Positions 1,593 through 13,388 are shown, numbered from the stretch's first letter. The stretch: 14,843 bases of DNA from Methanobacteriota archaeon (GCA_963787255.1 CAWBCJ010000017.1:1-14843); one strand, 5' to 3'. Program-made: numbers and translations. The notes: a model not told the origin generated them from the sequence alone.

Positions 1593-1604
1593 GGAGCGAC
1601 CAAA
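1593..1604 (+). promoter_or_regulatory. GGAGCGACC motif copy 1 (RBS of ORF 1607)
   Basis: GGAGCGACCAAACC followed by ATG at 1607. Confidence 0.75.
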
Positions 1605-1606
1605 CC

Positions 1607-1825
1607 ATGAATACATTACCGCAGGATCTAAGGATCCTGCATATCCCAAATAAGAGTATAATAGAATTAAAAAGTTTATTTTGTAATTTAAGTAAGAAAA
1701 ATAGTTATTCTTTTTTAGTTTGTTTTTCTTCGCATTCTTTAGCGAGTAAAAGGCGTCTTGTAACTTCTAAAGCAATTTTAGCAGGATCATATTTCCATTC
1801 TTCAGGGATATTTGGAGGCGTTTGA
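1607..1825 (+). CDS. Possible leader ORF (72 aa) translationally coupled to the ParB-histone gene
   Basis: ATG follows the motif RBS and its stop overlaps the next ATG (TGATG 1823-1827). The protein sequence is not recognisable. Confidence 0.4.
   Translation: MNTLPQDLRILHIPNKSIIELKSLFCNLSKKNSYSFLVCFSSHSLASKRRLVTSKAILAGSYFHSSGIFGGV
1621..1640. repeat. Perfect hairpin GCAGGATC-TAAG-GATCCTGC
   Basis: 8-bp GC-rich inverted repeat about 20 nt downstream of motif copy 1. Confidence 0.7.
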
Positions 1826-2799
1826 TGGAAAACAGAAAATACATGGTTACAATGAAGGATCCGATGTGTTTTGAGGCACATCCACTAAATAAGGAAATAT
1901 ACGGAACTGAAGAATTAGATACTGATTTTAAAGAAGATATACGCGATAACGGTATAAGAGAGCCTATTGTGGTAAATAGGGAAGGCTTCATTATTTCAGG
2001 TCACCGCAGGTGGAGAGCTGCAATAACAATAGGTTTACCTGAAGTACCTATCAGAATTGAAGAATTTGAAAGCCCAGAAAAAGAGGAAGAGGCTTTAATT
2101 GCTTATAACAAGCAACGTGTTAAGACTAAAGCCCAAATAGTCAGGGAGATTGAGAAATTAAATTTAATATATGAAACCCTTGGACTATCAAGACGTTTGA
2201 GCAATTTAAAGCAGTTTGAAGAAAATAACACCGAAGTTGCACTAGTGCAACATCGGGAGGAAGACACTAAAATACCAGAAAACATTCCCAACTTTGAAAG
2301 TGGCCTTGAATATTTAAACACACTTAAAAAAGGAGCCATCCCTGGAAAAGGAAGGAGTAATGAGCAGATAGCTGAACAGGTTGGAGTTTCTCCAAGGACA
2401 GTTTCAAGTGTAAAAAAAGTCTTGAAAGCATCCAATGATGAGGATCCTAAAATCAGTGAACCTGCAAAAGAAATCAAAAAAGATATGGAATCTGGAAAGA
2501 TTGGCTTTAAAACAGGCGCTGAAAAGGTGAATAAACTTATTAAGAAATCTAAAGGCCACAAAGGAAGACCTAAAGGTTCTACCAGCGGACCTATAAGTGC
2601 AACAGGTGTTAAAACTTTGGTTCAAAGTAGGTTAGCTGATTTTACTGCAGAAAATACTGGAGTTGAAATACTCAGGGAATGGCTTATGGAACAGGCCCAG
2701 GAGAAATCCTTGGAAGCAAAGAAATTAGCTCTTAAACGTGGGGATAAAAAGGTAAGGGAATCTGATTTCAGGCGTGTACTTGATAAGCCTGCTTATTAA
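1825..2799 (+). CDS. ParB/Srx-domain protein with HTH, AT-hook and C-terminal histone fold
   Basis: ParB-N: HPLNKEIYG...DIRDNGIREPIVV...IISGHRRWRAA..IGLPEVPI. HTH: SNEQIAEQVGVSPRTVSS. AT-hook-like KGRPKG. Tail EAKKLALKRGDKKVRESDF resembles the archaeal histone a2-L2-a3 region. RBS GGAGG at 1814-1818. Confidence 0.85.
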   Translation: MENRKYMVTMKDPMCFEAHPLNKEIYGTEELDTDFKEDIRDNGIREPIVVNREGFIISGHRRWRAAITIGLPEVPIRIEEFESPEKEEEALIAYNKQRVKTKAQIVREIEKLNLIYETLGLSRRLSNLKQFEENNTEVALVQHREEDTKIPENIPNFESGLEYLNTLKKGAIPGKGRSNEQIAEQVGVSPRTVSSVKKVLKASNDEDPKISEPAKEIKKDMESGKIGFKTGAEKVNKLIKKSKGHKGRPKGSTSGPISATGVKTLVQSRLADFTAENTGVEILREWLMEQAQEKSLEAKKLALKRGDKKVRESDFRRVLDKPAY

Positions 2800-3062
2800 T
2801 GCTCATGGAATTTTATGAGAAAATACCGAGAGGTGAACTGGAATTGACAGCAAAAAAAGAGGAATTTATTGGAGCGACCGAAGAACAAATAAATCCGATG
2901 AGTAGGATTAACATGCAAGATTACCTGGACACAATCCAGTACAAAGGCGCTGGAAAAAGGAATAAGCGAATAAAGGAATTTTGCATTAAATATAATCTCA
3001 CCAAAGAGGATTATGACATTTTAAGGATGAAAATAGTTAAAAATCAGTGGGTATTGGCATGA
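2799..3062 (+). CDS. Hypothetical viral protein (alternative start at ATG 2898 after motif copy 2)
   Basis: ORF coupled to the upstream stop (TAATG) and containing the motif at 2871. Confidence 0.6.
   Translation: MLMEFYEKIPRGELELTAKKEEFIGATEEQINPMSRINMQDYLDTIQYKGAGKRNKRIKEFCIKYNLTKEDYDILRMKIVKNQWVLA
2871..2882 (+). promoter_or_regulatory. GGAGCGACC motif copy 2, inside a hairpin spanning 2861-2896
   Basis: GGAATTTATT-GGAGCGACCGAAGAACA-AATAAATCC; in-frame ATG at 2898. Confidence 0.7.
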
Positions 3063-3202
3063 GAACGCTCAAGCCTAACAAATCCCATTCATCCTTTTTT
3101 TATAATGCGTGGCCTTTAATTGGATGGATAACTGCAATTATTGCCTATGTTATTATCATGATGATGCTTAATGACATCCGAATTTACAATTTTGGAGGTT
3201 AA
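3059..3202 (+). CDS. Small single-TM membrane protein (47 aa), not in the ORF track
   Basis: MRTLKPNKSHSSFFYNAWPLIGWITAIIAYVIIMMMLNDIRIYNFGG; ATGA overlap with the upstream stop; ends just before the next ATG. Confidence 0.7.
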   Translation: MRTLKPNKSHSSFFYNAWPLIGWITAIIAYVIIMMMLNDIRIYNFGG

Positions 3203-3204
3203 CC

Positions 3205-3468
3205 ATGAAAAGAAAGTCAAGAAATTTTAAAACACCTAAAAATACTGACAACTGGCAGAAAGAGCTTTTAAAACATATAGGCATGAGGGTAGACATAACA
3301 ATGAAATTAGGCAACGACAAAGCAATCTATAAAAATGTAAAGATTGTTAACGTGGACATTAAAGCAGGAAACAGGTTCATGATATTAACTGAGGAAGGTA
3401 AGGAATTAACATTAATCGGTGGAAATTATCTAATTGAAAAATTACCTGAAGAACGGCAAATATCCTGA
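3205..3468 (+). CDS. Putative Sm/Lsm-like (Hfq-type fold) protein
   Basis: Helix (WQKELLKHIG), then beta pattern MRVDITMKLG..IYKNVKIVNVD..N.FMIL...LTLIGGNY, resembling the Sm1 and Sm2 motifs. RBS GGAGG. Confidence 0.5.
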   Translation: MKRKSRNFKTPKNTDNWQKELLKHIGMRVDITMKLGNDKAIYKNVKIVNVDIKAGNRFMILTEEGKELTLIGGNYLIEKLPEERQIS

Positions 3469-3523
3469 AAATTTAAAGAAGGATTATGCAGAAAAAGTGA
3501 AAGCATCTAAATAAAATTTAAAT

Positions 3524-3535
3524 GGAGCGACCAAA
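3524..3535 (+). promoter_or_regulatory. GGAGCGACC motif copy 3 (RBS of ORF 3538)
   Basis: GGAGCGACCAAACT followed by ATG at 3538. Confidence 0.75.
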
Positions 3536-3537
3536 CT

Positions 3538-3654
3538 ATGATGAAAAATAATGATATAGATCCAATTGCAATTAAAGAATCAGAGCACTGGTTTGAAGGT
3601 ATAAAGCAGGCCATAAAAGAAGTTGACGAACTTATAGGAGACAGGGCAAGATAA
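3538..3654 (+). CDS. Small hypothetical protein (38 aa), not in the ORF track
   Basis: MMKNNDIDPIAIKESEHWFEGIKQAIKEVDELIGDRAR; motif RBS; ends in an AGGGC..GCCCT hairpin followed by a T-tract. Confidence 0.65.
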   Translation: MMKNNDIDPIAIKESEHWFEGIKQAIKEVDELIGDRAR

Positions 3655-3684
3655 GCCCTATTTTATTATTTTTAAGGTGATCCT

Positions 3685-4035
3685 ATGAGTAATAGAGTAG
3701 ATCGAGGATGGAAATTATACCTGCAAGATGCTGTTACAGTTGATTTTATAGCAAATGACAGCATGGCCTTTGATGTAAAAAGCAGCAGTGGAAAAGAAAT
3801 CTACAAAGTTGACATGGTAGATGATACCTGGAACTGCAGCTGCCATGATTTCCATAACAGAAATAAAAGGGAAAGCACTAAACAGTTAATTTGTATGCAT
3901 ATTCATGCTTCAATGTTCAAATTAGCTGAACTTTACAGGTTTGAGGAATTAAAAAAGGTTATTGCACAAGTAAAAAAAGGAAACAATAACAATGTGGTTT
4001 TAAAAGCATTTGAAGAAATTGAGGGAGGATTATGA
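3685..4035 (+). CDS. SWIM zinc-finger protein
   Basis: FDVKSSSG..YKVD....WNCSCHDF...ICMHIHA (CxC-n-CxH); RBS AGGTGA. Confidence 0.85.
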   Translation: MSNRVDRGWKLYLQDAVTVDFIANDSMAFDVKSSSGKEIYKVDMVDDTWNCSCHDFHNRNKRESTKQLICMHIHASMFKLAELYRFEELKKVIAQVKKGNNNNVVLKAFEEIEGGL

Positions 4036-4124
4036 ATTCTAATAAAATATTGAAAACAGACAGCCGAGGACATTCATTCTACGTGCAGGTAATAGAGGAG
4101 CTGGAGGAAGAGAAAGATGGTTAA
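4032..4124 (+). CDS. Very small hypothetical protein (30 aa)
   Basis: MNSNKILKTDSRGHSFYVQVIEELEEEKDG; RBS GGAGGA, ATGA overlap, and it bridges the two neighbouring ORFs. Confidence 0.5.
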   Translation: MNSNKILKTDSRGHSFYVQVIEELEEEKDG

Positions 4125-4332
4125 ATGTATTTTTACTGATGGTGCAGAATGCTGCAAATGCGTAATATGTAATCATGATATAAATAAGCCAAAGATCCAT
4201 GAATATACCTGTGCTAATTGTGGATACAAAGGAAAAACCAAAAAAGAAGCATACTGGTTTGAAGAATGCCCTAAATGTGGAGGAATTGTTGGATTTAAAC
4301 CTTGTCCAGCTAAAGATATGGTGGTTAACTAA
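4117..4332 (+). CDS. Cys-rich zinc-ribbon protein (10 Cys in 71 aa)
   Basis: CCKCVIC cluster plus YTCANCG...ECPKCGG; RBS GGAGG. Confidence 0.75.
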   Translation: MVKCIFTDGAECCKCVICNHDINKPKIHEYTCANCGYKGKTKKEAYWFEECPKCGGIVGFKPCPAKDMVVN

Positions 4333-4341
4333 TTTTATATT

Positions 4342-4353
4342 GGAGCGACCGAA
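4342..4353 (+). promoter_or_regulatory. GGAGCGACC motif copy 4 (RBS of ORF 4355)
   Basis: TTGGAGCGACCGAAT followed by ATG at 4355. Confidence 0.75.
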
Positions 4354-4354
4354 T

Positions 4355-4831
4355 ATGAAAGAAAATCAAGAGTATCAATTAGTAACTATGAAGATCCCTA
4401 TTGAACTTTATACAAAATCTAAAGCTTTGATTCCAGATAGAACTAAGGATTATATAGATCATTTGAATCGTAGAATAGCAACTAGTGATAGAGCTAGCAT
4501 GATTCAAAGAGAATTAGACGAAATTAAAACACGTCAAGAATTTTTAGAGCATGAATTAGAACTAGAATTAGGATTAAAAGAAGAGGAAGAGAAAGTATCT
4601 GGACAGTATAATGATATATTTAAACAGGCAATACAAACGATTAGAAACATTATAAATGCTGAAGGATGTATTGGCATGGATAAAATGGAATCTATTGCAG
4701 CTTTAAAGGATATCAGCTTTGCTGAATTAAAAATTAATTTACCTGAAGATATCCTGGAAAAGGTTGTTAATTACCATCCTCAGTATGTAGAGAAGGTTGA
4801 TTCACAGTTTGCAAGAGGAATAAGTAAATAA
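4355..4831 (+). CDS. Putative DNA-binding protein: RHH-like N-terminus plus coiled coil (start moved from 4199)
   Basis: YQLVTMKIPIELYTK beta-alpha pattern; acidic coiled coil IQRELDEIKTRQEFLEHELELEL; motif RBS before ATG 4355. Confidence 0.65.
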   Translation: MKENQEYQLVTMKIPIELYTKSKALIPDRTKDYIDHLNRRIATSDRASMIQRELDEIKTRQEFLEHELELELGLKEEEEKVSGQYNDIFKQAIQTIRNIINAEGCIGMDKMESIAALKDISFAELKINLPEDILEKVVNYHPQYVEKVDSQFARGISK

Positions 4832-4852
4832 AAAAAATAAGGAGGAGTTATT

Positions 4853-5098
4853 ATGGGAAAATTTGAAGAAGATAAAAAAAGAAGGGAAGAATTAATTAAA
4901 AAGGATATTGAGACTGCAGGAAAAATTTTAAAAAAATATCTTAAACCAGTATATGAAGGGGCTGGAGAAAAATGGACTGAAGAAAACGATGAAGATATGA
5001 ATACATTAGTAAAAGCAATATCCAATGCAGCAATACTTAAATCTCTTAATATTACATCAGAAATGTTAATAAAAGTTTTAACGCATCCAAAAGAGTAA
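4853..5098 (+). CDS. Hypothetical protein (81 aa)
   Basis: Strong RBS AAGGAGGAG; helical, charged sequence. Confidence 0.75.
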   Translation: MGKFEEDKKRREELIKKDIETAGKILKKYLKPVYEGAGEKWTEENDEDMNTLVKAISNAAILKSLNITSEMLIKVLTHPKE

Positions 5099-5109
5099 AT
5101 AATGAAAAT

Positions 5110-5168
5110 TTTGTAAAAATGAATGATACCAGGCCGAAACCTGGCATCAGGGAGCGTGCAACTCCCAT
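5110..5168 (-). ncRNA. Candidate sRNA-1 (double hairpin; first hairpin carries UUGCACGCUCC)
   Basis: On the minus strand: TATA TTTATATT (5196-5189), then AUGGGAG-UUGCACG-CUCCC, then UGAUGCCAGG-uUUCGg-CCUGGUAUCA, then a U-tract. The A/C mismatches on + become G-U pairs on -. Confidence 0.6.
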
Positions 5169-5235
5169 CTTAATTATTATCATAATCAAATATAAAGATA
5201 TGTAAAAATAATTTATTTTTTAAAATTAGTAAACT

Positions 5236-5308
5236 TGAAAGTACCAGGACCTAGATCCCGGTACCCAAGGGAATATTATTGGAGCGACCAAACTCTAATA
5301 AATCCCAT
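5236..5308 (-). ncRNA. Candidate antisense sRNA-2 (loop region UUUGGUCGCUCC, complementary to the motif sites)
   Basis: On the minus strand: TATA-like TTAAATATTTATAC (5340-5327), then AUGGGAUUUAUUAGAG-UUUGGUCG-CUCCAAUAAUAUUCCC, then GGUACCGGGA-uCUAGg-UCCUGGUACU, then UUUC. Confidence 0.65.
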
Positions 5309-5406
5309 TCCATATCTGTTTAGATAGTATAAATATTTAATGTAGAAATGCAAAGTAATAATTAACCCCACAAAAAAGACCGAAATCCAGATCGGAGGCA
5401 TAATAA

Positions 5407-6237
5407 TTGCATTCTGCGAAAGCTAAAATTTGTAAATATTGTGGTGAAATAATCGAAAACCCTACGCATTGGAAACAGAAATATCATCATGATCCAATGA
5501 ATGGAAATACTGAAAGCTGTACTGAACTGGCAAATAAAGAAAGAATCCGAATTGCAGTACGTAGATACCGTAAAAAGTTGATTAATAATGGATTAACAAC
5601 AAAAGGGAAAAAACGAAAATTAAATGTCTGCCAAATATGTGGAAGGATTCATAATGGAACTAATGGAATTAGATGTAGCAGCTGTTCTGATATAATTGTT
5701 TATGAACAGGCACTTGCAAGACGTAGAGATGCAGAACTAATTTTATGGAAACGACGCGTCAAAAGAAGAGATAATAATCTATGCCAGAAATGTGGAACGA
5801 ATAAAGATTTACAAGTACATCACATTAAAAATTACGCCCAATATCCTGAAATGAGATATAAGATTAATAACGGGATAGTATTATGTAAATCATGCCACAT
5901 CAGCCTTGATGGATTTCATTCAAAATATGGACGTAAAAACAATAATTTAAAGCAATTAGATAAATTTTTAGACAAAAATATTGTTTGTGAAGAATGTGGT
6001 GAAAATTTAAAAGAATCATTCCATGGAAACACGAAATATTGCAAAGAATGCAGGATAGATTTAAGACGCGAACAAACAAGAATCGCAATGCAAGACTATA
6101 GGCACAGATGGCCCTGGAGCAATCGAAATTTTAAAGGTTCAAGGAATGCACATTTAGGTGAAAGTGCTTTACCTAATTTCGATAAAGAATTCAAAAAAGT
6201 GCACAGGGAGAAAGTTAGATTGTGTGGCAATGATTAA
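5407..6237 (+). CDS. HNH endonuclease with flanking zinc-finger modules
   Basis: VKRRDNNLCQKCG..LQVHHI...NNGIVLCKSCH..FH; additional CxxC pairs on both sides; RBS GGAGG with TTG start. Confidence 0.9.
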   Translation: MHSAKAKICKYCGEIIENPTHWKQKYHHDPMNGNTESCTELANKERIRIAVRRYRKKLINNGLTTKGKKRKLNVCQICGRIHNGTNGIRCSSCSDIIVYEQALARRRDAELILWKRRVKRRDNNLCQKCGTNKDLQVHHIKNYAQYPEMRYKINNGIVLCKSCHISLDGFHSKYGRKNNNLKQLDKFLDKNIVCEECGENLKESFHGNTKYCKECRIDLRREQTRIAMQDYRHRWPWSNRNFKGSRNAHLGESALPNFDKEFKKVHREKVRLCGND

Positions 6238-6287
6238 CGTTTACACAAAATTATTGCTCACACCTTATTTTAAGGAAAATTAGTTTA

Positions 6288-6524
6288 TTGGAGCGACCAA
6301 CTATTAAATTCAGAAGAAGAGGTATCAAACCTGAAACTTCAGAGATTTATTCTATTTTAAATGAATGTCCTAATCCTAACTGCGATGCAGAAAATGATAA
6401 GTTAAGGCTAGATGAATCCCGTGCTGAAATCAGCTGTACGGTATGTGGTTATGTAATTGCAGATAGTGTTGATTATATTCATTCTGATAAAGAATTTTTA
6501 ATGATTATTGAAAAAGAACCTTAA
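6288..6524 (+). CDS. Stand-alone TFIIB/TFB-type zinc-ribbon protein
   Basis: CPNPNC....LRLDESRAEISCTVCGYVIADSVD fits the TFB N-terminal ribbon pattern; no cyclin folds. Start uncertain. Confidence 0.8.
   Translation: MERPTIKFRRRGIKPETSEIYSILNECPNPNCDAENDKLRLDESRAEISCTVCGYVIADSVDYIHSDKEFLMIIEKEP
6290..6300 (+). promoter_or_regulatory. GGAGCGACC motif copy 5 (start region of the TFB-ribbon gene)
   Basis: TTTATTGGAGCGACCAACT overlapping the predicted start. Confidence 0.72.
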
Positions 6525-7117: not shown

Positions 7118-7402
7118 GTGGTGGGATGGATGGACACACTTGAAATAATTTTAACAGTAATTGGCGTTATAATAGGTCCCTCAATTGTTATAGGGATATT
7201 CCTTGTTAATACACTTCAAAGACTTGCAAAAGTAGAAGAATGTGTAGATCCTGAAGATGCTAAAAGTATCGCAAGATTAGAGACAAAAATGGATTTTGTA
7301 CTTAAGTGGATAGCAGCTTTAAATGGAGAAATAAGTGATAAAAAAGAATTTAAAGAGTTCCTTGAGCAATTAAAAGAAATAGCAAAAAGTAAAGGATTAT
7401 AA
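7118..7402 (+). CDS. Single-TM protein with coiled coil (holin/lysis-accessory-like); start may be 7127 or 7130
   Basis: IILTVIGVIIGPSIVIGIFLV followed by RLAKVEE...IARLETKMDF. Confidence 0.65.
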   Translation: MVGWMDTLEIILTVIGVIIGPSIVIGIFLVNTLQRLAKVEECVDPEDAKSIARLETKMDFVLKWIAALNGEISDKKEFKEFLEQLKEIAKSKGL

Positions 7403-7837: not shown

Positions 7838-9133
7838 GTGATAAGTATGGACGAATACATTAAAATAAAAGATATAAAACCACATCCAGAAAATCCAAGA
7901 AACCACTCCGAAGAACAAGTGCAAAAGATAGCAAAAAGCATCAAGGAATTAGATTGGGGAAGACCCATAATTATCAGCCATGATAATTACATTCTCGCAG
8001 GTGAAGGAGCATACCTCGCAGCGAAGAATGTACTAAAATTAAGCGAAGTGCCATTTAGGCGTATGAAGCATCTGCATAACACTCCAGAGGCAGTTGCATA
8101 TATGCTAGCAGATAACAAACTGAATGAAGAATCAGATTGGAACTATGGAAAACTACAAACCATAAATACCGACCTGCGGCTTAAAGGATTCGATGTTAAA
8201 TTAACCGGATTTAGCGAATACCGAATTACAGGAAATTGAAGAAAAAAATAGGATCCAATTAAAAAAGAAGATATACGGGAAGATGAACATGACCCTGATG
8301 CAGAAGTTGAGATGCAATATGTAAAGAAGGCGATTTATGGCAGCTTAGGAGCACATCGGTTACTGTGTGGCGATTCAACCGATAATAATGATATTAACAA
8401 GCTTATAGATAATGATGATATTGATTTAGTTTTTACGGATCCTCCATATGGACAAATTGCCCAAGATTGGGATGTTAAATTAAATTGGAAAGCAATATCC
8501 CAATTATTTAATCAAATATTAACCCCCGAAGGACAGATCCATATCTTCTGCAAATTACCCTTCGGAAATGATATAATAAACAGTTTCACGGAAAAAGACT
8601 TTGATTTTTGGCAGGAATGCATCTGGGAAAAACCCCAATTTGCAAACTTCGTAGAGGGCAGGTTCCAGCAGAACCATGAAAACATCTACTTTTTCAAAAG
8701 AAAAAAAAGCAAAGTAATGGACATGGTTACTAATTTAGATTTAATTATGGACGAAGGAGAACCATATAAACTTAAAGGTGTGGGCGTATCACCCATAAAT
8801 GGCATGAAAAGAACCGACAAAGTAAATGAAACTGGGGAACGATACCCTAAAACAGTAATGCGATATGCAGCAATGCAATCAAGCTCAGAACGAGTCGGTC
8901 ACCCTACACAAAAACCGTTAAAATTATGCAGTAAATTCATTTTATACGGGGCAAACATGGGCGGTAAAGTATTCGACCCATTCGGTGGCAGCGGCAGCAC
9001 ATTAATCGCATGCGAACAAACAAACCGTAAATGTTACATGATGGAATTGGATCTGAAATATTGCGACATAATAATTAAACGGTGGGAAGACTTTACAGGG
9101 GATAAAGCAACTCTCATAAAACCCACCAATTAA
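7838..9133 (+). CDS. ParB-N fused beta-class amino-DNA methyltransferase (likely m6A), frameshifted around 8215-8310
   Basis: 5' part: IKPHPENPRNH..PIII...ILAGEG...MLADNKLNEESDW. 3' part: LGAHRLLCGDS, VFTDPPY (motif IV), HPTQKP, DPFGGSGSTLIA (motif I), MELD..YCDIIIKRW. Confidence 0.9.
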
Positions 9134-11108: not shown

Positions 11109-12433
11109 ATGATGTCAACAATAAAAATAGTTTACCTATCATGAGTCATGATCCTAATGATAGGATTATGCAGGCCATGAGAAGATATGATCCACATTTC
11201 ATTAATTATTCAATACGCCAAATAACAGATTTCCCTGTTGCATCTGATAATGAATTACTCCTGCACTATCTACGTGGAGCTGCAGGTCCATTTATTGATG
11301 TTAAAAGTGTATGCAGAACTTGGTGTGGGCTGGAAGTTAAACCTGTAGGATTTGAAGATGAAGAATCAGGCCTGGAAGCAAAGAAATTAACCGAGAAATT
11401 CTTTAAAAAGATTGATTTTTACACTACAATGATACAACACGCAGTATTTTACCGTGTGCTTGGAAGATCTAGCATAGTTAAAACCTATGATAAAAGTGGT
11501 GGATTCTATTACAGCCCCAAAGAGAAAGTAATGGGAATAGACTCCATTAACCCCATGACACTTACCGATAAGAGTATCAGGGAAGTTATGGCAGATACTA
11601 CAGGCACCAAGGCATACGAGCAATATGCAACTACCGTGGACCGTAAATCAGATACATGTTACACTTAGAGGCGGATAGGGTTATTTATTCTACTAATAAT
11701 CCTATGACAAGGTATAGTCCGTATGGTAATTCTGATTTAATGAACAGTATAACTGATTTAAGGGCTATTGCAAGATTCCCACATTACCGTGATCGACTTG
11801 GGCATAAGTATGCTAATCTTTTCCGTGTTATTGAAATTGACACCGAAAAGATTGCTGAAAGTGAATATGGCCAGAAGATTAAAGATGATGCACTGGAAGC
11901 GCAGAAGTATCTTGATGACACCGCCCAATTTTACCGTAAACAGGAACAGGACTGGAGGAACCGTGGCGGTTTATGACTGGCAAAAAGTAGTTGAGGCCAG
12001 CTTCGGAGGAAAAGAAGTTAAACTAGGCGAAATTGAAAGGACCAGCCTTGAAAGTCTTAGCTTTAAACAGACGAGTACCCATGCCACTGCTCATGTTTTC
12101 ACAATATGTTAACCGTGATACACTTGCGTACTCTTGCAGAAACTTTTATCAGCATGCTAGAGAAAGGGACCCAGGAATTTTGTTCATACTCCAATTATTG
12201 AAGGCACTGCTAATGAGTACTTGGAGATGAATGAAATAAACGAGGGCCGATTAGAAGTTGAATATAACCCATTTCTTGCTAAGAATTTACTTGAAGCAGC
12301 CCAGATTATCAGTTCGGTCTGGCCTACAGGTGCATTTAGCCGGCCGGATATCCGTGAATGGCTGGACAAACCATTATTACCTAATCTTGGTGGTGATGAC
12401 TGGAAAAAATTAGGCTTAAAACCCTATGCCTAA
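11109..12433 (+). CDS. Portal protein (putative), split by several frameshifts
   Basis: Directly after TerL with RBS AAGGAG. Fragments 11141-11668, 11656-11976, ~11950-12230 and 12221-12433 tile about 430 codons. Portal-like patterns: YRVLGRS, INPMT, SPYGNSDL, SRPDIREWLD. Confidence 0.75.
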
Positions 12434-12992: not shown

Positions 12993-13388
12993 TTATTCTC
13001 TATAATGTTCAATATGGTCAAATAAGCTGAATATAATTACAATAAACATCCCTATTATGGACCAGTGGTAATCATGGAGTTCTTTAGCATCAGATTTTTC
13101 CAACTCTCTCCCTATATCCTTAAGAGCATTTATATAATGGTCCAATCTCATTTCCATTCCACCTACTTCAGATTCATAAGGCAAAAGTTCCAGATTCCTG
13201 GCCTTAATCATTAAAAAATCAGATACATCCTGCAGCGATTTCCCAATTTCCTTTAAATCCCCTTTTTTGATAATATTGGGATCTACCATGCCTTTTATAA
13301 ATGAAGTACTTGAAGACGCTTCAAAATGGCCTATCATATCTAAAAATGATTTCTCAATTTTACTTAGATCTGGTTTATCTGAATTCAT
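12993..13388 (-). CDS. Hypothetical protein with a hydrophobic C-terminal helix
   Basis: 131-aa ORF with ATG start; WSIIGMFIVIIFSLF. Confidence 0.7.
   Translation of the reverse strand: MNSDKPDLSKIEKSFLDMIGHFEASSSTSFIKGMVDPNIIKKGDLKEIGKSLQDVSDFLMIKARNLELLPYESEVGGMEMRLDHYINALKDIGRELEKSDAKELHDYHWSIIGMFIVIIFSLFDHIEHYRE

Follow-up and report, generated by a model that had tools for sequence, protein, structure and literature searches.

The stretch of DNA analysed here (the window, 14,843 nucleotides, nt) is the complete contig C17 of a 2.47-Mb, 29-contig assembly of a Methanobacteriota archaeon. Bases 1 to about 900 are 57-63% GC and contain a minus-strand gene for a WG-repeat protein, while the remainder is a provirus remnant of 30-38% GC. 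The early region of this provirus consists of small + strand genes, including those for several small Zn-ribbon proteins, one of them TFIIB-type; to the right of it lie a split ParB-methylase gene, genes for both terminase subunits, small and large, and a portal-like region broken into fragments. Within the early region the 9-mer GGAGCGACC, hereafter the tag, occurs six times, always on the + strand. One of the copies is part of an intergenic hairpin, which we call the hub. The six copies are listed below, together with the open reading frames (ORFs) and start codons next to them.

1593..1601, + strand: tag copy 1, with which the early-region series opens; ATG 1607 is 14 nt from the motif start; the positional counterpart in the related genome G018 is at 3526
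2871..2879, + strand: tag copy 2, inside ORF 2799-3062, where it reads in frame as Gly-Ala-Thr; in-frame ATG 2898 follows 27 nt on
3524..3532, + strand: tag copy 3; ATG 3538 of a 38-aa ORF lies 14 nt from the motif start
4342..4350, + strand: tag copy 4; ATG 4355 of a 158-aa protein lies 13 nt from the motif start; the G018 counterpart, at 8662, has TTG at +13
5281-5289, + strand: tag copy 5, in the hub hairpin; intergenic, with no start codon after it
6290..6298, + strand: tag copy 6; the TFIIB-type Zn-ribbon gene comes next, and the G018 homologue has its ATG where the window has ATT 6303

A sequence-only reading of the window had taken these six + strand copies to be far above chance, and this is the case: the chance expectation is 0.02, and six copies were reached in none of 200 dinucleotide-preserving shuffles. 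Extended to an 11-mer, the motif closes with CCAA at four sites and with CCGA at two. Furthermore, GGAGCGACC is absent from the rest of the 2,469,968-base assembly, in which all 29 contigs were scanned on both strands; the motif is therefore not a general ribosome-binding site (RBS) of the host, whose commonness at host genes the same reading had named as the observation that would speak against it. Among 201 genomes of the same family, the 9-mer is present at least once in 116, but one-strand clusters are found only in the window's own genome (G000, six copies) and in G018 (nine copies), the remaining genomes having 0-5 scattered copies each. Every copy in the window lies to the left of the terminase genes, with none to the right of 6300, and the late regions of the related proviruses in G018 and G017 are likewise free of tag copies.

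The conservation of the tag was assessed through a DNA search over 61 related genomes, in which G018 was found to hold a provirus colinear with the window; the genomes with the elements compared here are placed in the window's own genus. Its early region carries GGAGCGACC nine times, all on the sense strand, and all six window copies are matched in position by G018 copies. Of the matched sites, one follows the lysogeny module, one lies within the homologue of ORF 2799-3062 and one comes after that of 3205-3468; the other three are in the intergenic hairpin and ahead of the 158-aa and Zn-ribbon genes. Over these six site pairs 54 of 54 motif bases are identical, whereas the 30-nt flanks show an ungapped identity of 42% upstream and 37% downstream (29% for random pairs) and the proteins common to the two proviruses are 33-52% identical. 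Full identity of the motif amid such diverged flanks and proteins shows that the motif itself is under strong purifying selection.

The provirus of G017 bears a different form of the tag, GGAGGCGACCACCAC, five times and again only on the sense strand; the variant GGAGGCGACCA is clustered in G017 alone among 314 family genomes. Three more elements were recovered by using as a marker the conserved small protein encoded at 7118-7399, which is present in 7 of the 314 genomes, and each of them has its own repeat. The element on C1, another contig of the window's assembly, carries G(A/G)GGGCGGCAACCAC in four copies, with one more on C2; the element of G022 carries GACGGCGAA(TC) in 4-5 copies within 10.5 kb, compared to 22 in its 3.4 Mb; and the metagenome contig L198 carries GAG(A/G)CGACCAG in three copies. 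Between G017 and C1 the identity of the early genes is 62-75%, and the orthologous tag sites and hubs of the two bear different tags, which means that the tag set has changed in concert. Moreover, the presence of two tag variants in the window's assembly, on C17 and on C1, argues against a reader supplied by the host, with the caveat that this assembly is 4.6% contaminated.

Outside this group, the 158-aa early protein is encoded by 12 proviruses of other genera, in which the repeated 9-mers are coding repeats and no tags were found; in the search of genome contigs its sole match was in Methanobacterium sp. Among the 119 stretches listed by a 14-mer scan of IMG/VR there were only single chance matches, with at most two copies per strand per locus, and neither the IMG/VR scans with the early proteins A1 and A2 nor a metagenome scan with A1 gave a match. 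Full-text word searches of the literature found no description of such a motif in archaeal viruses. In conclusion, the family comprises six Methanobacterium provirus elements with five tag forms, and the tag set is strongly selected, element-specific and changes in concert with the hub. The proposal that the copies form one provirus set tied to early-gene starts, and the co-variation of loop and targets that it predicted among related proviruses, are both borne out by these comparisons.

We then considered the position of the tags relative to start codons, counting ORFs of at least 30 codons. Over the six elements, an ORF start lies 1-11 nt past the motif end at 14 of 32 copies, where 4.1 are expected (binomial P 1.5e-5); the copies at this distance are 3/6 in the window, 4/9 in G018, 1/5 in G017, 3/4 in C1, 3/5 in G022 and 0/3 in L198. 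The three window copies are copies 1, 3 and 4, with GGAG 9-10 nt ahead of the ATG, in agreement with the RBS distance previously assigned to them. Copy 6 would join this set if ATT 6303 is a start codon. It had been described as overlapping the start of the TFB-ribbon gene; it does stand ahead of that gene, but the overlap is not required, since the G018 ATG aligns with ATT 6303, 13 nt from the motif start. The product of 6303-6524, with ATT where the G018 homologue has ATG, is a stand-alone TFIIB-type Zn-ribbon protein of 73 aa, and it may be speculated that such a protein could interfere with the host TFB at RNA polymerase.

Other copies are placed differently. Copy 2 does precede the in-frame ATG 2898, as had been noted, but it lies inside ORF 2799-3062, and in the G018 homologue of this ORF the motif starts 6 nt after an ATG that has its own Shine-Dalgarno sequence, AGGTGA. 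Overall, two G018 copies are found 6 and 18 nt downstream of ATGs having their own AGGTGA or GAGGTGA, and one G017 copy overlaps an ATG. As some copies lie past start codons already provided with a Shine-Dalgarno sequence, and a few deep in ORFs, the motif is tied to initiation regions and is not simply a Shine-Dalgarno sequence. The 3' end of the 16S rRNA of the assembly reads ...GGAUCACCUCCU, and its predicted duplex with the tag amounts to -8.6 to -10.0 kcal/mol, compared to -9.3 to -16.2 kcal/mol, mostly similar, for the canonical sites of the provirus. The CGACCA part adds no significant 16S pairing, its rank among GGAG+6-mers being the 30th percentile, and that of the G017 form the 6th.

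The structured elements around the tags are the following.

5269-5306: hub hairpin, 38 nt, with GGAG in the stem (paired with CUCU) and CGACCAAA in the loop
5241..5264: hairpin A, beside the hub; where the + strand has an A.C mismatch, the minus strand forms a G.U pair
5328..5335, - strand: TATA-like box TATTTATA, 19-21 nt from the hub foot; putative promoter for a leftward transcript
5125..5166: second module of two hairpins, diverged, made of hairpin A' (5125-5148) plus GGGAG-CGTGCAA-CTCCC (5150-5166)
1621..1640, + strand: hairpin L, GCAGGATC-TAAG-GATCCTGC, directly after copy 1

Copy 5 had been described as the loop of a hairpin with a minus-strand TATA-like box nearby. The box is present, and the copy is indeed intergenic and part of a special, conserved hairpin, but only CGACCAAA is in the loop. 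The predicted fold of the hub is -14.2 kcal/mol in the sense orientation (z -5.2) and -11.2 kcal/mol in the antisense one (z -2.3), while hairpin A gives -9.9 kcal/mol sense and -16.5 antisense, and hairpin A' -7.6 sense and -12.4 antisense. The diverged loop CGTGCAA of the second module has no matching dispersed sites in the window. With regard to hairpin A, we also observed that a GGTACCAGG-type box, of which it is made up, occurs ahead of the G022 tags, as (TA)CCAGG(C/G) 8-10 nt upstream of tag copies (L197 2660-2690, 3230-3290, 6455-6490 and 12925-12955).

Equivalent intergenic hub hairpins with different stems are found in G018, in G017 (two) and on C1, and G022 has two hairpin copies of its tag. 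Five of the six elements thus keep one or two hairpin hub copies; no hub was identified in L198, which offers too little sequence to judge. The hub stems vary yet pair, as in GGGA/UCCC versus GGGU/ACCC and UUAUU/AAUAA versus CUAUU/AAUAG. RNAalifold run on a MAFFT alignment of four hubs returned 0 pairs; that alignment is not structural, and the stems were compared by hand from single folds. The neighbourhood of the hub is variable, with another downstream gene in G017, and the window, G018 and G017 each encode a TFIIB-type Zn-ribbon protein at some point downstream of the hub (230 aa in G017). A search of the window against Rfam 15 (E up to 1) gave only a sub-threshold SNORD45 match elsewhere, L013 and L014 gave no match, and no tRNA or tRNA-like structure was found.

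In the five elements considered, the tag core is unpaired within a stem of at least 3 bp in 12 of 29 copies, where about 3.5 are expected (per-element background 0.07-0.15), and for roughly half of the copies in the window and G018 a CUC(U) that comes after GGAG is available to pair with it. In G022 one and the same loop, CGGCGAA, stands on varying stems (AAGA/UCUU, AUGA/UCAU, UGUUGA/UCAACA and AUAG/CUAU); such a pattern is to be expected of an RNA hairpin but not of a protein half-site. Hairpin L is kept in position in G018, G017, G022 and C1, with differing stems, and its fold is sense-favoured in all four relatives measured, which, in line with expectation, indicates rightward reading of the early region at this place.

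Taken together, these data support a model in which the tag probably lets the virus switch its tagged early genes together. The RNA tag itself would be provirus-specific and about 11-14 nt long, with the 9-mer at its core, and would consist of GGAG (the Shine-Dalgarno core), CGACC and a short A/C-rich tail. Some of the early genes would carry this tag in sense orientation, within or close to the region where translation starts, and often a small hairpin would expose it in its loop. One element-encoded, trans-acting reader would recognise it on the mRNA and co-regulate the translation, or the stability, of the tagged genes. We consider it likely that the tag is read at the RNA level by an element-specific reader.

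As to what the reader may be, an antisense RNA transcribed leftward through the hub and silencing the tagged initiation regions is, in our tentative assessment, the single most likely mechanism. This small RNA would start at about 5307 and run through the hub and hairpin A, and its loop and 3' arm (UUUGGUCGCUCCAAUAA) would pair at each of the five other copies over 13-17 contiguous bases, G.U pairs included, so as to occlude ribosome binding. In this way the hub RNA would mimic the anti-Shine-Dalgarno end of 16S rRNA while matching only the tags of its own element. No early protein clearly common to all elements was found and a hub is present in all five elements that can be judged, which we counted in favour of this mechanism.

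Several indirect signals concern the strand of such an RNA. Averaged over the other copies, contiguous matches are longest for the hub both in the window (14.2 nt, versus 11.0-13.4) and in G018 (14.25, versus 11.25-12.5). A minus-strand TATA-like 8-mer, defined by at most two mismatches to the TATA consensus TTTATATA, lies 17-25 nt from the foot in four of five hubs (window, G018, G017-B1 and C1, not G017-B2) on a background of about 0.15; the four cases are not all independent of each other, since the window and C1 share homologous hub flanks. Hairpin A is antisense-favoured in three of three cases, by 6.6, 4.8 and 1.6 kcal/mol, compared to a control in which only 31% of 64 strong hairpins were antisense-favoured by more than 1.5 kcal/mol. 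As a whole, these predicted features weakly favour a leftward hub RNA.

The antisense proposal had originally been modelled on the C4 RNA of P1/P7 and the CI RNA of P4, in which a short immunity RNA pairs with repeated sites at the ribosome-binding regions of lytic genes. Each of these two RNAs is cleaved out of the very transcript that contains its targets, so that RNA and targets form inverted repeats on one strand. This architecture does not hold here: unlike C4 and CI, the tags are all direct repeats, there is no Rfam match, and neither the window nor G018 has a + strand complement of the 9-mer, even when G.U pairs are counted. A same-strand antisense RNA of the C4/CI type is thus excluded. 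The antisense RNA of Halobacterium virus phiH is reportedly a cis-encoded counter-transcript of one early transcript. The proposed hub RNA differs from it in that it would be trans-acting, with several dispersed short targets. The phiH RNA nevertheless offers a precedent, in that antisense RNA on the early lytic transcripts of a temperate archaeal virus is mentioned for it in PMC6210493, citing Stolt and Zillig 1993.

A number of points weigh against a leftward hub RNA. The hubs of the window and of C1 fold better in the sense orientation (by +3.0 and +2.8 kcal/mol), and the seven hub-type hairpins are split into four antisense, two sense and one neutral. The centrality of the hub fails in G017, where it ranks second. 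The supporting statistics are post hoc, small and partly non-independent. Of the 32 copies, 18 are off Shine-Dalgarno distance, and at least four lie well inside ORFs. In addition, the 9-mer could be exactly identical in the window's genome and G018 just as well because its partner is a protein that evolves slowly, and the contamination of the assembly is 4.6%, the co-residence of C17 and C1 in one cell being unproven.

Among known systems, the tag most resembles, judging by analogy, the start-associated sequences (SAS) of cluster K mycobacteriophages, the hub being an added feature. As described in the account of these sites by Pope et al. (PMC3203893), SAS are short asymmetric motifs with a GGAG Shine-Dalgarno core, present in many copies and in one orientation in the non-structural part of the genome, and virtually all of them are 3-7 bp upstream of a start codon. 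The same account reports that they are absent from the host genome, that their conserved positions are unable to pair with 16S rRNA, and that the inverted repeats found upstream of SAS (extended SAS, ESAS) were judged not to form RNA hairpins (PMC3203893). Their reader, RNA or protein, is given as unknown, and their function as still untested, in a source of 2025 (PMC12699233). Like SAS, the tag is an asymmetric GGAG motif, on the sense strand in 6/6 window, 9/9 G018 and 5/5 G017 copies, confined to the non-structural part, with 0 further copies in the 2.47-Mb assembly and with conserved positions unable to pair with 16S rRNA. Unlike SAS, it stands at start-codon distance in 14/32 copies only, with some copies just inside ORFs; it belongs to an archaeal host, is a motif of 9-14 nt in 3-9 copies with its own variant in each element, and is present in one or two copies in a conserved intergenic hairpin. 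Since the sequence differs from that of SAS, GGGATAGGAGCCC, beyond GGAG, and the context is archaeal and not that of actinobacteriophages, we regard the likeness as one of kind and not of descent.

A second kind of reader acting on RNA, to which we give only slightly less credence than to the hub RNA, is an element-encoded RNA-binding protein or sequence-specific endoribonuclease, for which the tag would be a translational operator and the hub the highest-affinity or autoregulatory site. Models for such a reader are the operator hairpin of the MS2 coat protein, Mu Com on the mom mRNA and T4 RegB, which cuts GGAG in early RBSs. Loop display, exact conservation of the 9-mer over diverged proviruses, the several small Zn-ribbon proteins of the early region and the TFIIB-type protein downstream of the hub in three elements are all consistent with a protein reader, but no recognised RNA-binding fold was found among the proteins examined, and the lack of an early protein clearly common to all tag-bearing elements counts against it as well. 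Contiguous identities of 16-27 nt between hub and copies also exceed the site of a small protein, although recent copying could explain these too. The ParB-HTH (helix-turn-helix) protein of the early region was considered as a reader and rejected, as it was not found in G017, C1 or G022. The closest mechanistic rival acts on DNA. The stoperators of cluster A mycobacteriophages are 20-30 sites spread over the whole genome and bound as double-stranded DNA by a known repressor, according to the description in PMC6550527. A provirus repressor acting on asymmetric sites could likewise block RNA polymerase, as L5-type repressors do in these phages. The tags share with stoperators, as characterised there, the hallmarks of asymmetric, dispersed, transcription-oriented and element-variable sites in short intergenic gaps or gene ends, and stoperators co-vary with immunity specificity (PMC6550527); moreover, the first copy stands where an early promoter is expected, and small leftward ORFs adjoin it in G018, G017 and G022. 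We nevertheless regard a stoperator-like system as unlikely: the copies are limited to the early region, binding to double-stranded DNA leaves unexplained both the enrichment in RNA hairpin loops and the varying-but-paired stems, as well as the Shine-Dalgarno core at fixed spacing in 14/32 copies, and the repressor is only a candidate, the DNA-binding folds of the leftward ORFs resting on the Pfam and Atlas leads described below.

A purely cis-acting extended RBS or translational enhancer, uniform through copying and read by the host ribosome alone, would account for the spacing of GGAG in the three window copies and for a 16S duplex as strong as that of most canonical sites of the provirus; the lack of added pairing by CGACCA, the G018 copies past starts with their own Shine-Dalgarno sequence, the hub copies without a start codon and the presence of different variants in one assembly make it improbable. 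Still less probable is a non-regulatory role as a linker or boundary at which gene cassettes recombine (module shuffling). The early regions are mosaic among elements, and two of the five DNA similarity blocks between the window and G018 begin at a tag, but blocks beginning at gene starts are expected anyway, and the hub hairpin, loop display and Shine-Dalgarno spacing would be left unexplained. The possibility to which we give the least credence is that the tags are repeated promoters, or promoter-proximal operators, of separate early units. AT-rich TATA-like sequence does adjoin several copies (for example TTTATATT ahead of 4342), but sense-strand TATA-like 8-mers are not enriched in any of the three distance bins tested (6/32 versus 3.1, 7/32 versus 4.2 and 2/32 versus 3.9 expected). 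Besides, with the usual spacing from TATA box to start site, transcription from a box directly next to the tag would begin about 21 nt further on, beyond ATGs of proteins that share conserved N-termini with their homologues. The intergenic repeats of halovirus HF2, of 29 or 58 bp and AT-rich, are described as proven promoters with positions conserved among relatives (PMC8707807); the tags resemble them as between-gene repeats of an archaeal virus whose positions are kept among relatives, and differ from them by the GC-rich core and by the lack of TATA-like enrichment at any fixed distance.

The leftward ORFs are described next, starting from that of the window.

1708..1881, - strand: leftward 58-aa ORF converging on copy 1 and overlapping the ParB gene start

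In the relatives a small leftward ORF converges on the first copy and on hairpin L. The one of G018 encodes 59 aa, with a PrlF/AbrB-type match at E 0.07, while those of G017 (79 aa) and G022 (78 aa) share 38% identity across 58 residues, and a ribbon-helix-helix (RHH) fold for the latter two is an Atlas lead only (score 0.91). The window ORF gave no Pfam or PHROG match and no BLAST match to the G018 ORF; it is probably a degraded counterpart of the relatives' ORFs, and its poor alignability and overlap with the ParB start fit a defective element. The earlier view that no protein repressor is evident agrees with the lack of a Pfam match in the window, but its premise is doubtful, because the relatives carry the small leftward ORF and the window version looks degraded. 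The placement of hairpin L between the rightward early start and the leftward small ORF suggests a convergent-transcription switch.

Further features of the window are the following.

946-1413: tyrosine integrase, C-terminal part
1825-2799, + strand: ParB-N/HTH protein, early region
4117-4332, + strand: Zn-ribbon protein, early region
5407-6237, + strand: HNH-containing Zn protein, early region

The GC-rich WG-repeat segment (1-945) abuts a provirus of 33% GC whose integrase lacks its N-terminal part, and this junction is probably a chimeric join or bin contamination. The HNH nuclease domain of the Zn-binding protein encoded at 5407-6237 is missing from its 93-aa homologue in G018. The gene for ParB-N plus an N6/N4 DNA methylase (7838-9133) is divided into two ORFs in the window and on C1 and forms one ORF in G017 and G022. 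The portal-like region (11141-12433) is fragmented into at least four ORF pieces, and the same pieces are found on C1 (reverse complement of bases 1-30000, about 23008-24315) with 83-97% amino-acid identity, which indicates that the assembly holds two copies of one defective late module. Finally, the minus-strand ORF 12993-13388 has 89-95% identical copies on contig C22 of the same assembly, where a repeat of about 21 nt, TATAGCGACC(A/T)TGTGGCTAAA, is found at positions 418, 5814 and 18893, with GCGACC in common with the tag.

In conclusion, the finding is larger than first reported, in that it concerns a small family of proviruses with private tags. Almost nothing is known of gene timing and lysogeny in temperate methanogen viruses, and the tag set, with one hairpin and five to nine short sites, offers a compact handle on their regulation. 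It extends the phenomenon of the mycobacteriophage SAS to archaea, and what it adds, the conserved hairpin copy and the loop display, points to recognition on RNA and to a reader that is experimentally accessible. A further possibility, which we put forward with caution, is an RNA-only immunity code, in which private "orthogonal" Shine-Dalgarno-like tags would be silenced by the leftward hub RNA and elements with different tags would be heteroimmune by RNA pairing alone; if this were true, the two elements in the window's assembly would be heteroimmune. Private tags of the initiation region could also serve as orthogonal expression signals in methanogens.

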